Positions 128 to 45,313 of a stretch of DNA of 45,313 nt are shown in pieces. Position numbers and translations under genes: made by a program. The stretch lies in IMG/VR virus record IMGVR_UViG_3300032253_000004, positions 1-45,313 of that record. The stretch is one strand, 5' to 3'. How positions within the stretch are numbered: the first letter of the stretch is position 1; each line of letters opens with the position of its first letter. The notes under the pieces were generated by a model that saw only the letters and a list, made by a program, of their open reading frames with translations, had not been told where the DNA came from and did no database searches. Origin of the DNA: a virus (Duplodnaviria > Caudoviricetes).

Positions 128-412
128 GTTCTGGTCGATCTGGCCGAGGGTGACAGCGTCTGGCGCATCGCCACCGATTGCAGCGAGGATGAATTCAAGT
201 CGGTGTTCACCGGCGCGATGATCCATCTCAACATCGATGCGCGGCTCTACGGCACGCATTTCGCTGGTCGGGCTGTGGATAAAAACCGGGCCCGGTATTT
301 CGATGCAGACCCGTGGCACGTCGCGCTCAAACCCGATGTGCTGGCCGCCCTCGACCCGACCGCCAAGCCCGACACCCCATCGCCGCAACCCGAAAAAGGA
401 GAGGCCGCGTGA
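1..412 (+). CDS. C-terminal part of replication initiator (continues from 44606 across the junction)
   Basis: ORF 5..412 is in frame with ATG 44606 through the 127-bp overlap (45191 corresponds to 5). Confidence 0.8.
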   Translation, partial: PVTLADLGELAGAEGALVRAALNGWQKPERIKPFIGRFRVLMVLVDLAEGDSVWRIATDCSEDEFKSVFTGAMIHLNIDARLYGTHFAGRAVDKNRARYFDADPWHVALKPDVLAALDPTAKPDTPSPQPEKGEAA

Positions 413-1176
413 GCCGAACCAAACCCTCTGCGCCCCGCCGCATCATCGCCGCATCGCCCGCCATGGTGTCTGCGCTCGACGGGCGGTGCGAGCCTGCCGC
501 GCCAGCCGGAAAGCCTATCGTCCAGATCACCGGGCGCTATGTGGACAACACCGAGCCGGTTGGCCTGCCATCACACCGCACGGGCCCTGACGATGCGCAG
601 AAGCGCGAGGTGCAGCGGGCGATCGACCGGCTGGCCGTGCTTGACGATATCCGCTCGGCGCAGGGTCGGCTGTCCATCGATACCGGCCAAGCCTACACGA
701 TCATGGCACTCGGCGCGGAACTGGTCGGTGGCAAGATATCCAATCTCGCGCCGACCAAGCAGATCGGCGAGTGGGCCATGCGGCGTGGCCGCCGCGCTGC
801 CTGGCTGGTCCGGCCGCAGGTCGTGGCGCTGTGTGTTTATCACTCGCTGCATCTTATGAGCCTCATCGGAAAGTCCGGTGTGGACCCGGAGGCTGTGCGG
901 GTTGATGGCGGCGGTGGCGGCAGTATCGAGTTCGCCCTGTCAAACGCGATGGATGCCGAGCGTGAACGCCGCAGGGCGGCCGGATCTCTGCCTCGTCTCG
1001 ATGGTCGGCCGTTGCAGGCGCAGCTGATCGACTGGGTTGTGGTGCATGATCGGCCGATCGACGACTTTAAGATCGGTGATGTGTTCAAAATGACAGGCGC
1101 GGAATCGCAAGCTGTGGCAAGGCGAACGCTGTTCTGGGCGGCGTCAACTCATCTTGCAGAGTATTTTGGGAGTTGA
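409..1176 (+). CDS. Putative late-gene regulator/antiterminator (Q-position protein)
   Basis: GTG 409 overlaps the upstream TGA (GTGA); last early gene, directly before a promoter-terminator pair and cos. Function inferred from position only. Confidence 0.5.
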   Translation: MSRTKPSAPRRIIAASPAMVSALDGRCEPAAPAGKPIVQITGRYVDNTEPVGLPSHRTGPDDAQKREVQRAIDRLAVLDDIRSAQGRLSIDTGQAYTIMALGAELVGGKISNLAPTKQIGEWAMRRGRRAAWLVRPQVVALCVYHSLHLMSLIGKSGVDPEAVRVDGGGGGSIEFALSNAMDAERERRRAAGSLPRLDGRPLQAQLIDWVVVHDRPIDDFKIGDVFKMTGAESQAVARRTLFWAASTHLAEYFGS

Positions 1177-1202
1177 CACCAGACCGTCTGGGGAAGTATG
1201 CA
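1173..1202 (+). promoter_or_regulatory. Putative late promoter (pR'-like)
   Basis: TTGACA (1173-1178), 18-bp spacer, TATGCA (1197-1202). Confidence 0.55.
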
Positions 1203-1233: not shown

Positions 1234-1269
1234 AAGCCCGCCCGGCAAAAGCCGTGGCGGGTTTTCTTT
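1234..1269 (+). terminator. Intrinsic terminator (tR'-like)
   Basis: AAGCCCGCC-CGGC-AAAA-GCCG-T-GGCGGGTT hairpin followed by TTCTTT. Confidence 0.7.
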
Positions 1270-7994: not shown

Positions 7995-8678
7995 ATGACG
8001 CTCATGGTATCGACTGGTACGGCGCCTAAGGCCCCGTCTGACATCATCAAATTTGAAACAAACCCCAGCTATTGCCGTGCCGAAGGCGTATTGCTTGCCG
8101 GTGACGGTGCGGCCCGTGAAATCGCCTTTGGCGAAGTTCTCGGTGCAGCGGTCTTTGGCACTCCGGTCTATGCGGCCGGCGGCGGCAATACTGGTGATGG
8201 CGCGGCGTCCGGACTTGCCCTGAAGGCCGGCGCCCAGCTGGGTGTCTATACGCTTGAATGCATCACAGCGGCTACCGATGCCGGTGTATTCGCTGTGTTT
8301 GACCCCAACGGCAATCGCCTCGCGGATCTGACTGTCGCCGTCGCATACGATAACGGCCAGTTCGCCATCACTATCGCCGATGGTGCCGCTGACTTTATCG
8401 TTGGGGACACCGCGACCGTCACGGTCGGTGAAGGCACTGGCAAACTGGTCGCCCGCAGTCTGACAGCTGTAGACGGTACGGCCCGCACAGCCGGAGTTGC
8501 GATTAAGGCCGCCACGGCCGCCGATGGCACTGACGGCAAGGTGCTTTTTGAGAAGCGCGGGCCGGCAACTTTGCTTCGCGACGAGATTGTCTATCCGACA
8601 GGTGCGTCCACCGACCAGAAAGCGGCGATTGACGCCGAGCTTCTGGCGGCCGGCATTCTGGTCGAAACCGGCATCTAA
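7995..8678 (+). CDS. Head decoration protein with inserted domain
   Basis: SYCRAEGVL, GEVLG, DGTARTAGV, final 'LLAAGIL' pattern; sits between protease and MCP. Confidence 0.8.
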   Translation: MTLMVSTGTAPKAPSDIIKFETNPSYCRAEGVLLAGDGAAREIAFGEVLGAAVFGTPVYAAGGGNTGDGAASGLALKAGAQLGVYTLECITAATDAGVFAVFDPNGNRLADLTVAVAYDNGQFAITIADGAADFIVGDTATVTVGEGTGKLVARSLTAVDGTARTAGVAIKAATAADGTDGKVLFEKRGPATLLRDEIVYPTGASTDQKAAIDAELLAAGILVETGI

Positions 8679-41731: not shown

Positions 41732-41913
41732 CCGGGTTTGATCTGTCCATACTGTCCGGTTTTTCCGGTCTGCTCATCTTTTGGGTCTGGACGGGGCGCA
41801 GCCTGCAGGCGCGCGGCGCGGTGCTAGCTGCAATCCCGGCCTATGGCTTTGCCGGTGTGTGTGTGGCGTTCGCCCTGATCTTTGTGCTCGTCCGCTTTGG
41901 GGGTGCGCCATGA
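41728..41913 (+). CDS. Small 2-TM membrane protein
   Basis: ATGA coupling; two hydrophobic segments. Confidence 0.55.
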   Translation: MTGFDLSILSGFSGLLIFWVWTGRSLQARGAVLAAIPAYGFAGVCVAFALIFVLVRFGGAP

Positions 41914-42194
41914 CGAACCGCATCGATGGCTCAGCCAAGGGTCAACTTCAGGCGTTTGTCGCTCGAATTGAACGGATCAATGGCGACATTGCCGAGCATC
42001 AGGAAGACCGCAAGGCGGTATTCGGTGAGGCGAAATCCTCCGGGTTTGACGTCAAGATTCTGCGCAAGGTCATTGCGCTTCGCAAGAAGTCGAAGAGCGA
42101 GGCCGATGAGGAAGCTGCGCTGCTCGAACTGTATCTCGAAGCGGTGGGCTGGGACGGCACGCCGCTCGGTGCCCATGCGAGTGATGCGCCATGA
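41910..42194 (+). CDS. gapR: GapR-family nucleoid-associated protein (DUF2312)
   Basis: GQLQAFVARIERI..VFGEAKSSGFDVKILRKVIALRK..EEAALLELYLEAVG matches the GapR pattern. Confidence 0.92.
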   Translation: MTNRIDGSAKGQLQAFVARIERINGDIAEHQEDRKAVFGEAKSSGFDVKILRKVIALRKKSKSEADEEAALLELYLEAVGWDGTPLGAHASDAP

Positions 42195-42577
42195 CCGCCT
42201 GGTCCGCTCTCAAACATGATCAGCGCACCGGCCTGGGCTGGGAGGCGCTGAACCGCGCCGTCAGCGATGCGGTGGATGCCGCCATAGACAGCTGTGGCGG
42301 GCGTTTGAGCGTGGAGGGCGGGTGCCAGGCCGCGTTTGAGGCGCTCGGCGATCTGGGCGTGGCGGATCTGTCGACCGATGAGGCGATCGACCGGGCCGCC
42401 GCCGAGCTGTCTGCAAATTTGGCCGATCTGGGTTTGATGAAAATCGGCGCCGGTGCGGTGGCCGTCCAGGCCATCACCTATCTGCGGCGCCGCGATATCG
42501 ATCTGGGCCCGGCCCGGTCGCGCGTGGATGCGACGCCAGGCGGAAAACCGGTTTTACAGCAGGGGGCACGCAAATGA
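42191..42577 (+). CDS. Hypothetical protein
   Basis: ATGA-coupled at both ends. Confidence 0.6.
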   Translation: MTAWSALKHDQRTGLGWEALNRAVSDAVDAAIDSCGGRLSVEGGCQAAFEALGDLGVADLSTDEAIDRAAAELSANLADLGLMKIGAGAVAVQAITYLRRRDIDLGPARSRVDATPGGKPVLQQGARK

Positions 42578-44172
42578 CGGATGCACAATTTGATGCGCTG
42601 TGCGCGAAAATTGCAGACCTTTACAAGGTTACAGCTGACGATCTGAAGGGCCGGTGTCGCAAGGGCGCGGTCGCGACCGCGCGCCACTGTCTGATGACGG
42701 TGATGGCAGGTTTGAACATGTCTGGTGTCGATATCGGTCGATATCTGGGCCGTCATGCCTCGTCGGTCAGTTATGGCCTGGCACAGTTCAAAAAGCAGAT
42801 CCGCACCAATCCACAATTGCGCGCCTTTGTGGCAGCACGTATCGCTGAAATCGGCTCTATTACCCCGCCAAGCGCTCCGAAGGTTTTGACGGCCGACAAG
42901 ATCGCGCGCGCCGTGGTGGCGGCCGGTCGGGTTTTTGGAGTCGCGCCGGATCTGGTTTTGACTTTGAAGGGCCAATCGCGCGAGGCGCGCCAGGCGGGCC
43001 GTGCCCGGCGGGCGGCCATGTTTGCTCTAGCGCGTGTGTTCAACCAGCCCGTGGACCGGATTGCCTGCCTGATAGGCGGGTATCGTGACCCGCGTTCGGC
43101 GGGTGCATCGCTGCGCTATGCCCGGCAAAACCGCGAGGATCGCTCGGCGGCGGTGCGGCGCATTGCCGAAGCGCTGGAATGGTCATTCAAATTCGCAAAT
43201 GCCAGCGCATCTGCGCCAACGCCGGTTCCGGAGACGGTTCGGGCGACGAAAGTGGAATCCGCCTGCGCGACCGAGCCGAAACCTCAGCGCGAAAAACCGG
43301 TGCGGTTGAATGGCTGGACGGATCGCGAAAAGGCGCGGCTTACCGCCGGGCGGGCGCACGGCGAAACCTATGCCGGATTGATGGTCGTGCTTCCGGGACG
43401 CAGCGAGAATGCGATCAAGGTGCAGGCCCGAAAAATGGGCTTGGCAAAGCCACGTGCGGCCCGTCAGGCCCGCAAAACCGACGCCGCCCGCTGGACGCCC
43501 GCCGAGGATGCGATTATTCGCGAACGGCGTTCGCGCGGGTTCAGCTGGCGCCAGATCGCCCGGCTGCTGCCTGGACGGACGCCAGCGGCGGTTCTCGATC
43601 GCGCGGCGCGCCATCTCAATTTGACACCGAAAACGTCCAAACCGGCGCATCTGCCAATCCCCGAATCTGTGCCGGCGTCCATACCCAAAGGGTCGCCGCA
43701 AACCGGCGGGCATGGCCAGTGGAGCGTGGACGAAATTGCGGTGCTGCGCGAGGTCGCAGACCGGGGGTATTCGATGGCAACGGCTCTGTCACGCCTGCCG
43801 GGACGGGACATGAATGCGGTCGGCAGCAAGGCACGCGCGCTCGGCCTTGATCTGAGTGGACCGTCAGCGCCGCGCGTGGTGCCGGGTGCGGAATTGAGTT
43901 CCGGACCGGCGATTGACGGTGCGGTCAATCGCGGCGTCGAGGCCGTGCTGTCCCTGAAGCCCGGCCAGTGTAAATGGCCGGTCGGCAATCCAAACGGTGC
44001 CGAATTTAGGTTTTGCGCGGCGGCCAAGGCCAGTGGTGATCGCCGCTATTGCGCCGAGCATGCCGCGCTCGCGGGGCGGCGCTACAACACGGCCAAGCGT
44101 AAGAAAAACGCCATGGACGTGACCGGCGTTCTCGACCAGCTGGATAATCGTCGCAAGAGGATGTCGGTATGA
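42574..44172 (+). CDS. Chimeric regulator: 2x DnaA domain IV-like, 3x GcrA/Myb-type HTH, GcrA C-terminal domain
   Basis: IADLYKVTADDLKGRCR..ARH..IGRYLGRHASSV; WTDRE/WTPAE/WSVDE..PGR..A repeats; CKWPVGNP..FRFC..YCAEH. Confidence 0.82.
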   Translation: MTDAQFDALCAKIADLYKVTADDLKGRCRKGAVATARHCLMTVMAGLNMSGVDIGRYLGRHASSVSYGLAQFKKQIRTNPQLRAFVAARIAEIGSITPPSAPKVLTADKIARAVVAAGRVFGVAPDLVLTLKGQSREARQAGRARRAAMFALARVFNQPVDRIACLIGGYRDPRSAGASLRYARQNREDRSAAVRRIAEALEWSFKFANASASAPTPVPETVRATKVESACATEPKPQREKPVRLNGWTDREKARLTAGRAHGETYAGLMVVLPGRSENAIKVQARKMGLAKPRAARQARKTDAARWTPAEDAIIRERRSRGFSWRQIARLLPGRTPAAVLDRAARHLNLTPKTSKPAHLPIPESVPASIPKGSPQTGGHGQWSVDEIAVLREVADRGYSMATALSRLPGRDMNAVGSKARALGLDLSGPSAPRVVPGAELSSGPAIDGAVNRGVEAVLSLKPGQCKWPVGNPNGAEFRFCAAAKASGDRRYCAEHAALAGRRYNTAKRKKNAMDVTGVLDQLDNRRKRMSV

Positions 44173-44609
44173 GCGGGCGCACCCCGGCCCATATCGCTTT
44201 GGAGGCGTGTCGCGTCGAAAATCGCAAGCTGCGCGATGAGAACGCGGCTCTGCGCGCCTTGCTCGATGAGCCAGGCTTGCCAGAAGGCGTGATCGAGTTC
44301 GGGCCAATCGACTGGAATTTGACGGCGTGTGAAGCGTTTATCATCACCCGCCTGGCGCGTCTTGGCCGGTATGATCCGCGCCGCGATTTTGGCTGGCCCG
44401 GACCGTCCGGCGACGCCATTTCAAAGCGCTCTATCGACGTGATCGTGCTGTATCTTCGCCGCAAGATAGCACCGTTCGGCGTGACAATTGTCGCCGTGCG
44501 GGGTGCGGGTTTCATCGTTGACCCGATGGTGCGCGCGGGGCTCGCCGCCGCGCTGGATGGGCACTGTGGGGCGGTGATCCACCCTGCCGGGAAGGCGGTG
44601 GCGGCATGA
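44169..44609 (+). CDS. Receiver-less OmpR/CtrA-type winged-helix protein
   Basis: LTACEAFII..IDVIVLYLRRKIA..IVAVRGAGF; N-terminal coiled coil instead of a REC domain. Confidence 0.8.
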   Translation: MSGRTPAHIALEACRVENRKLRDENAALRALLDEPGLPEGVIEFGPIDWNLTACEAFIITRLARLGRYDPRRDFGWPGPSGDAISKRSIDVIVLYLRRKIAPFGVTIVAVRGAGFIVDPMVRAGLAAALDGHCGAVIHPAGKAVAA

Positions 44610-45186
44610 GCGGTTTTGTGCAAGGCCTGGTGTGGATGACACGCGGGCTGGGCGAGGTGAAAATCGTGTCGGAATCCTCGGTCAAGGCGGTGCTGGCGCG
44701 CATTGCCGACGCTGCGAGTGATGAAGGCGAGGGGCTGCGCCCGCTGGCGTTGTGCTATCTGGCCGATGATACCGGGCTGAAAGAGCGCCAGGTGCAGCGT
44801 GCGCTAGCCCGACTGAAAGCCGCCGACGTGCTGGACGTGGCCGTCGACACCGGGCGGGGTCGCGGCAAGGCGGCGCTTTACAAAATCGATCTTGACGCCC
44901 TGTCGGGCTTCATTCCGCTGGAAAAATTACCCGCAGGCCTGCGCGCCCGGGTGGTTGCAGCCTGTCGCGGAGAGGGTGACGGGGGTGCGCCAGAAAACAC
45001 GTCAAATTGTCGTGTTTTGGACGGTGATAAAAGACGACAGCAAGCCGCACAAAAGACGACAATAGAGACCGTAAAAGACGACTCTACAGACACCCACTAC
45101 GTATCTACGAAAACTACAAAAAGGCGCGGGCGCGCGAGCGAGGCGAAACGCTCTCGCCGCCCGGCGCCTGATGCGGGGGTGCCACC
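44606..45186 (+). CDS. Replication initiator, N-terminal part (HTH); joins 1..412 to give about 330 aa
   Basis: Not in the ORF track because it runs off the end; KAVLARIADAASDEG..LADDTGLKERQVQRALARL HTH; contains iterons. Confidence 0.78.
44994..45122. other. ori: Putative replication origin (iterons)
   Basis: AAAAGACGAC at 45029, 45051 and 45073; inverted variants at 44994 and 45009; CTAC repeats in an A-rich tract. Confidence 0.72.
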
Positions 45187-45313
45187 ACCGGTGACGCTGG
45201 CCGATCTGGGCGAGCTCGCCGGGGCTGAGGGCGCGCTGGTCCGTGCGGCGCTCAATGGCTGGCAGAAGCCCGAACGCATCAAGCCTTTCATCGGGCGGTT
45301 CCGGGTTTTGATG
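45187..45313. repeat. Terminal direct repeat (assembly overlap), copy 2
   Basis: Identical to 1-127. Confidence 0.97.

Follow-up and report, generated by a model that had tools for sequence, protein, structure and literature searches.

The stretch of DNA that we analysed (the window, 45,313 nucleotides) comprises an entire virus record; direct terminal repeats at its two ends overlap by 127 nt and close it into a circle of 45,186 bp. It is a complete, lambda-like, temperate phage of 45 kb. We identified lambda-type head genes using Pfam and PHROGs (terminase gpA, portal, S49 protease, decoration protein and capsid E), together with tail genes, an amidase, an integrase, a cI-like repressor, a cro-position gene, a cII-like activator and an O-like initiator. 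The head decoration protein (7995-8678, 227 aa) is about twice as long as the Pfam HDPD profile, whose 116 positions are spread over residues 8-221, so that it probably contains an inserted domain. The leftward operon of this temperate phage additionally encodes a small ATP-dependent DNA ligase (36078 to about 36950, - strand; phrog_114, E 2e-23). The window sequence was found in microbial-mat metagenome runs, and the presence of GcrA-, GapR- and GafZ-type genes points to an alphaproteobacterial host.

The gene of interest (42574..44172, + strand, 532 aa) lies within the rightward early operon, with cII and GapR genes upstream and a replication gene downstream; the start and stop codons of the gene overlap the stop of the preceding gene and the ATG of the following one, respectively. 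The neighbours, all on the + strand, are a GapR-like nucleoid protein (41910..42194; PF10073, E 2e-24), a coiled segment joined to an OmpR/CtrA-type winged helix lacking a receiver (44169..44609), and a lambda O-like replication initiator of 330 aa identified by PHROGs (44606..45313, continuing across the circular junction to 412). The winged helix matched Trans_reg_C at E 0.002, under the cut-off, and its homologue in the related provirus L003 scored above it. Look-alikes of host cell-cycle proteins, one GapR-like and one of OmpR/CtrA type without a receiver, flank the 532-aa gene within one operon.

The reading frame is free of internal stops, and its product is laid out as D1-D2-M1-M2-M3-SID followed by a basic tail, the parts being assigned by Pfam and by structural modelling. 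Bac_DnaA_C, Myb_DNA-binding and GcrA all scored above their Pfam cut-offs, and sequence matches in the PDB were to GcrA (7YE1 and 5YIX) and Myb proteins. This agrees with the original prediction of a six-domain protein, as does the absence of an AAA+ family from the six Pfam families listed for the protein at E<=1. The full-length equivalogs scored far below threshold: TIGR00362 (DnaA) covers profile positions 348-430 only (30.9 against a cut-off of 343.9), and the NCBIfam GcrA equivalog NF050816 reaches 39.7 bits against 280. The six-domain form is present in two records only, the window protein (P0001) and P0002, a separate ENA record. P0002 covers the entire protein without a break at 97% identity (17 substitutions), which argues against an assembly chimera. 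One contig from metagenome run X1, possibly the record's own source, also spans the gene.

The first domain, D1 (aa 1-93, 42574..42852, +), is a variable, low-GC helix-turn-helix of the DnaA domain IV/GafY-like type. Pfam places Bac_DnaA_C (PF08299) at aa 10-69 (E 2e-11, 44.1 bits against a cut-off of 31.5), bearing out the prediction for residues 1-93. An alignment containing D1 matched four GafY-position genes (hhalign probability 90, E 1.7e-6), and these four genes ranked first among 415 ORFs with the A6 profile. The recognition helix of D1 is nevertheless unlike that of GafY. Eight of the 17 differences between P0001 and P0002 fall in D1, its GC3 (0.59) lies below that of the remaining five domains (0.71-0.75), and it is missing from the orthologue P0003. 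We additionally observed, in runs X2 and X3 from two studies, one low-depth contig each with the same foreign letters just before codon 102 (42877), which means that the population contains an alternative N-terminus. Thus, D1 is likely to be a recent or exchangeable addition.

The second domain, D2 (aa 102-208, 42877..43197, +), is conserved in this lineage, with homologues in P0003, P0021 and L021:9288-10004. We found no Pfam or PHROG match for D2, and no BLAST match between it and D1. Its model (pLDDT 88.9, pTM 0.82), built from four family members only, retrieved DnaA domain IV at Foldseek ranks 1-9 in the PDB (probability 0.66-1.00, TM 0.50-0.58), with a best E-value of 0.028 and no match at E<=0.001, and all ten rows of an Atlas structure search were DnaA-family clusters (TM 0.62-0.70). 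The predicted fold of D2 is that of DnaA domain IV, diverged; against the GafY-position genes it gave a weak hhalign probability of 13.5. Among the 40 strain differences listed (39 within the gene; 36 more exist), those in D2 are 16 synonymous and one non-synonymous, where sites occur at a synonymous to non-synonymous ratio of about 1:2.7, and D2 is therefore under purifying selection. The predicted second DnaA-type copy at about residues 103-200 was accordingly correct as to fold, and misleading in calling that copy degenerate.

The DnaA recognition-helix consensus for DnaA boxes is RDHTTV. Both copies here have replaced it, with RHASSV in D1 and YRDPRS in D2, while the basic-loop arginine is retained; the shorter pattern RD[HR]xx, kept by 12 of the 16 printed stand-alone phage DnaA-IV domains, reads RHASS and YRDPR, respectively. 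T435 is among the residues with a role in this signature (PMC9638019). The 45-kb phage contains two strict DnaA boxes. One perfect box, at 274, lies inside the initiator gene and is not conserved in the close relative L104. Since D1 and D2 both lack the signature, the proposed occlusion of host oriC is unlikely, and these data speak equally against the wider suggestion that the protein binds DnaA boxes.

The central part of the protein contains three repeats, each starting with a tryptophan and carrying an LPGR turn, at the positions predicted for those tryptophans: M1 (W248, 43315..43443, +), M2 (W307, 43492..43620, +) and M3 (W383, 43720..43848, +). M2 is recognised by Pfam as Myb_DNA-binding (aa 306-347, E 1e-6, above cut-off) and matches Myb structures in the PDB (E 4e-6). 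M1 and M3 are assigned by motif, phrog_323 (E 0.003 and 8e-4, respectively) and a model of the block (pLDDT 77-86) only. PHROG 323 is annotated as a D5-like transcriptional regulator. With Myb and GcrA-reader profiles built here, M1 scored 16.5 and 10.9 bits, M2 50.1 and 17.1, and M3 7.6 and 16.9, respectively; two of the three repeats thus favour Myb, and M3 is nearest to the GcrA reader, although its alignment to GcrA residues 3-52 is weak (4.8 bits). The predicted three-helix, reader-like repeats were therefore recovered, with Myb/SANT-like as a better label than GcrA helix-turn-helix.

GcrA reads methylated GANTC through R33, N34, I37, G38 and R42 (PMC5887438). R33, I37 and G38 are kept by none of the three repeats, against a GANTC-methyl motif in 84 of 92 genomic GcrA loci, and the suggestion of methylated GANTC reading is not supported on this point. 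Intermediates were identified among the relatives, the upstream gene of L021 and the first repeat of a Brevundimonas phage Bajun protein each scoring 43 bits with the GcrA profile, and on these scores descent of the repeats from a GcrA-type reader is plausible, though with a specificity that has since changed. Repeat number varies from two to five across the family, and recognition-helix residues vary between orthologous repeats, as would fit loose, non-specific binding.

At the C-terminus we identified a GcrA-type sigma70-interacting zinc finger (SID, 43930..44088, +; C466, C481, C493 and H496), matched by Pfam GcrA at aa 456-509 (E 3e-12; profile positions 101-153, the C-terminal third only) and by PDB entries 5YIX and 7YE1, as the original prediction had anticipated from a GcrA signature at this end. 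It follows the CCCH pattern C-X14-C-X9-C-X2-H, with 11 instead of 9 residues in the second gap. A basic patch, KRKK (aa 508-511, 44095..44106, +), aligns to the place of GcrA K157-K159, for which a role is known (PMC9976885). Scored against the interface residues mapped in PMC5887438, the finger retains all four zinc ligands and K119, W120, G123, P125, F130, F132, Y142 and A150. Within the sigma70 interface set (W120, F130, F132, Y142, Y151, K119 and D124) five of seven are kept, the exceptions being Y151G and D124N. Glycine at position 151 occurs in 1 of 32 comparison proteins and tyrosine in 17; tyrosine is also found in 81 of 84 genomic SIDs, a set biased to Sphingomonadales, with 80 of its 92 loci fetched by P0003 patterns. 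N124 occurs likewise in 1 of 32. Position 129 varies naturally among the 32 (11 have G, 12 have D and 4 have E), and G129E falls within this range. As both substitutions are rare, and Y151A is reported to abolish sigma70 binding in Caulobacter GcrA (PMC5887438), the finger may bind sigma70 less strongly or in a rearranged manner. Across the family, neither the zinc ligands nor most of the interface residues vary, P0001 and P0002 differ in the finger at R479K only, and the P0003 finger retains both D124 and Y151.

We investigated the distribution of this architecture, and obtained 2,052 matches at E<=0.001 among 1.84 billion representatives. P0002 was the only protein with Bac_DnaA_C among 137 scanned with Pfam from the best 150 (13, mostly long ones, were left out, and the best five families per protein were considered), and the finger motif was present in 31 proteins out of 151. 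P0003 is the single clear orthologue (39% identity, E 3e-47), and combines D2 with five repeats and the finger (D-M5-SID). In L003, the provirus that encodes P0003, the operon is the same and is followed downstream by a separate DnaA-IV gene; we noted that this gene (L003:10592-11476) carries two tandem DnaA-IV domains after an unannotated N-terminal part. A second related phage, L021, has the same inventory as the window protein (two D, three M and one SID) divided between two adjacent genes, D-M and M-D-M-SID. The SIDs of P0001, P0003, P0021, P0031 and L033 form one branch (97/89) in a tree of 60 rows and 50 columns, a short alignment with rough bootstrap values.

A survey of viral GcrA genes covered 80 of 120 retrieved loci (about 200 are in the collection), of which five lack the full motif and 70 are distinct. 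Separate DnaA-IV genes were identified within the flank at 11 of the 70, all 11 on the same strand. No fused DnaA-IV/GcrA form was found at these 70 loci, with a search pattern that would not match P0001 and with many flanks cut, in keeping with the predicted rarity of the fusion. GenBank contains possible precursors: two repeats and a finger in Bajun, and GcrA with a separate DnaA-IV gene in Ssp-JY42. At another locus, a viral GcrA gene is followed, after about 4 kb, by four consecutive DnaA-domain-IV genes (L149:13827-15740).

Across the contig junction, third downstream of the 532-aa gene, we identified a gene in the position of lambda Q (409..1176, +, 255 aa), present in all three family phages with context, with copies at the same place 35% identical in L003 and L021 and 80% in L104. 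It had no direct match in Pfam, PF20057 included, or in PHROGs. A four-sequence profile of this gene matched 14 DUF6456/GafZ proteins (hhalign probability 92, E 5.9e-7; score 49.4 against a maximum of 15.8 in 30 shuffles), an Atlas search returned viral clusters with DUF6456, and by hmmsearch with DUF6456 only the L021 copy scored (E 0.009). The product is thus probably a GafZ/DUF6456 homologue and likely a late antiterminator. Caulobacter GafZ is described as an antiterminator that acts through a palindromic element lying between the -35 and -10 boxes (PMC11150451, PMC9632790); Q and AlpA are cited in PMC11150451. The link with GafZ is not general, since 2 of the 70 viral GcrA loci had a GafZ match and none had both GafZ and DnaA-IV, in flanks that were often cut. 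We separately noted a prophage-like remnant (L033:4334-6311) with a repressor-like gene, a short finger-only ORF and, some 400 bp after this ORF, a GafZ homologue (E 7.5e-15).

Directly after the Q-position gene lies a candidate late promoter (1173..1202, +), TTGACA and TATGCA, with a perfect 6-bp inverted repeat in the spacer (1179-1191). A TTG[AC]C-17/18-TAT[GC]?[AC]A site occurs at this place in all four phages (the window, L003, L021 and L104), the pattern having been derived from these same alignments; searched on both strands of the window it gave one match, and on the + strand of the corresponding loci one match per relative. The spacer repeat is perfect in two of the four, over 6 bp in the window and 7 bp in L003 (against 31 of 3,000 random 18-mers), and L021 and L104 have only three perfect pairs. 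Compared with L104, the window has changes in the spacer as well as in the C-terminus of the Q-position protein, as though the two varied together. A candidate terminator hairpin with a U-rich tail follows before the terminase genes (1235..1269, +; -28.1 kcal/mol, z -4.6, 0 of 200 shuffles), with z of -4.6, -4.6, -4.7 and -2.6 in the four phages. A strict scanner calls neither the promoter nor the terminator. Between the candidate late promoter and the terminase genes, L003 (15915-16685) and L021 (14141-14917) carry similar genes of 256-258 aa, with no counterpart there in the window.

Taken together, we favour, at slightly better than even confidence, the interpretation that the 532-aa protein acts as a sigma70-tethered phage transcription activator, docking through its finger and bringing polymerase to phage promoters with its own readers. 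It would be made early in infection; the finger would dock on host sigma70; the D and M domains, as non-host readers, would each bind DNA; and RNA polymerase would be pulled to phage promoters in the way that GcrA recruits it by means of a single reader, with activation rather than inhibition as the presumed effect. The finger and reader of GcrA are reported to work independently across a flexible linker (PMC9976885), so that swapping the reader would retarget the polymerase. The original idea that the protein tethers RNA polymerase to phage DNA is thus backed as an idea; we identified no target DNA site for the protein.

More speculatively, D1 and D2 could take the part of GafY at the late promoter (1173-1202), and the GafZ-like Q-position protein could be loaded at the palindrome in the spacer and allow read-through of the hairpin. 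GafY, a lone DnaA domain IV homologue, is reported to bind upstream and to recruit sigma70 through regions 3-4 (PMC11150451, PMC9632790), activating a phage-like late cluster (PMC11150451), and the DnaA-like domain of GafA is described as required for the promoters of gene transfer agents (GTAs; PMC9638019). In its boldest form, which we offer tentatively as a possibility, this phage lineage would keep a living, self-replicating GTA switch: a GafZ-type antiterminator in the Q position together with its palindrome in the spacer, and an activator of the GafY type welded to a GcrA finger, clamping sigma70 at regions 3-4 (DnaA-IV) and region 2 (finger), with DNA readers swapped between strains.

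The same intact finger could instead serve a host take-over decoy, occupying the GcrA site of sigma70 while five readers hold the polymerase elsewhere and damp GcrA-dependent cell-cycle genes. Loss of GANTC reading would make such a protein a natural dominant-negative, its neighbours resemble host GapR and an OmpR/CtrA-type reader, and phage GcrA homologues have been proposed to alter the host cycle (PMC3556154). However, a decoy would not need five readers under purifying selection, as seen in D2, and reader-less GcrA is reported still to stimulate melting slightly (PMC5887438); we regard this explanation as unlikely. Still less probable is a broad, low-specificity DNA-coating protein, a phage nucleoid component or general modulator in which the finger has lost its binding to sigma70. 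Y151G and D124N, the variable repeat number with unconserved recognition helices, and the annotation of PHROG 323 would all suit such a protein, but the invariance of the zinc ligands and most interface residues, the near identity of the two strain fingers, and the retention of Y151 and D124 in P0003 would not.

A role in replication control, with D1 and D2 on DnaA boxes, occluding host oriC or aiding the phage origin by transcription, is very improbable: the fold, the basic-loop arginine, the position two genes before the initiator and the box at 274 are as it would require, but the recognition-helix signature is lost from both domains, strict boxes are few and that at 274 is not conserved, and for GafY the DnaA-control reading has been withdrawn in favour of transcription (PMC9632790). 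Finally, the fusion could stem from faulty assembly or read-through, or could be a neutral accident in which two adjacent genes became joined. This would accommodate the absence of D1 from P0003, the X2 and X3 contigs and the restriction of the six-domain form to two records, but is the least credible explanation in view of the unbroken P0002, the X1 contig (if not the source itself) and the retention of the D2-repeats-SID fusion at 39% identity.

The preferred reading, a sigma70-tethered activator, involves parts that are individually known in a combination that is new, in a protein that belongs to neither the GcrA nor the DnaA family proper; as far as our literature search entries show, there is no published account of such a fusion of DnaA-IV, repeats and GcrA finger. 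The GcrA finger would be a portable sigma70 hook (docking being predicted) to which phages attach unrelated DNA readers in changing combinations, and so a design found in nature for directing the RNA polymerase of alphaproteobacteria to new sites. Parts resembling GafY and GafZ, along with a promoter laid out as in GTAs, occur here in a complete temperate phage, which makes a phage origin of GTA regulation testable.

Compared to known systems, the protein shares with Caulobacter crescentus GcrA (PF07750; 5YIX, 7YE1; PMC5887438, PMC9976885) the C-terminal CCCH finger, basic patch, flexible linker and three-helix readers, but has 532 aa rather than 173 and three repeats rather than a single N-terminal reader, adds two DnaA-IV folds, and carries Y151G and D124N. 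Phage GcrA homologues are already in print (PMC3556154, PMC9437464), and a phage-borne SID is found in phiCbK gp222 (PMC3556154) and in BAJUN_00520 of Bajun (ON529858). The latter, of 235 aa, similarly has two LPGR-type repeats and a SID, but lacks a DnaA-IV fold and retains R33, I37 and G38 in its first repeat. Stand-alone phage DnaA-IV genes beside GcrA (e.g. PP438432, XAI96985.1) provide the same parts on the same strand of the early region, but as separate genes, most of them with RD[HR]xx.

The closest functional precedent, GafY (HdaB) and the N-terminal part of GafA (PMC9632790, PMC11150451, PMC9638019), was missed by the original prediction, as was the GafZ-like gene across the contig junction. 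These proteins likewise have a DnaA domain IV without AAA+ and a GafZ/DUF6456-type partner gene in the same genome, and in the Caulobacter GTA promoter the -35 and -10 boxes similarly enclose a palindrome, with a terminator-like hairpin further downstream, candidate elements in our phage. In contrast, two DnaA-IV copies are fused here to a GcrA module, the recognition helix differs from that of GafY, and the GafZ-like gene lies about 1.4 kb away on the circle, whereas gafZ follows directly or is fused, with mucR-sufE synteny; and the setting is a self-replicating temperate phage rather than a GTA.

In lambda, Q exerts late control, and the order is cI-cro-cII-initiator-Q-promoter-hairpin-late genes. 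The phage studied here has the same order, its promoter and hairpin being candidates, but its Q-position gene is GafZ-like, and an extra factor, predicted to dock on sigma70, is encoded upstream.
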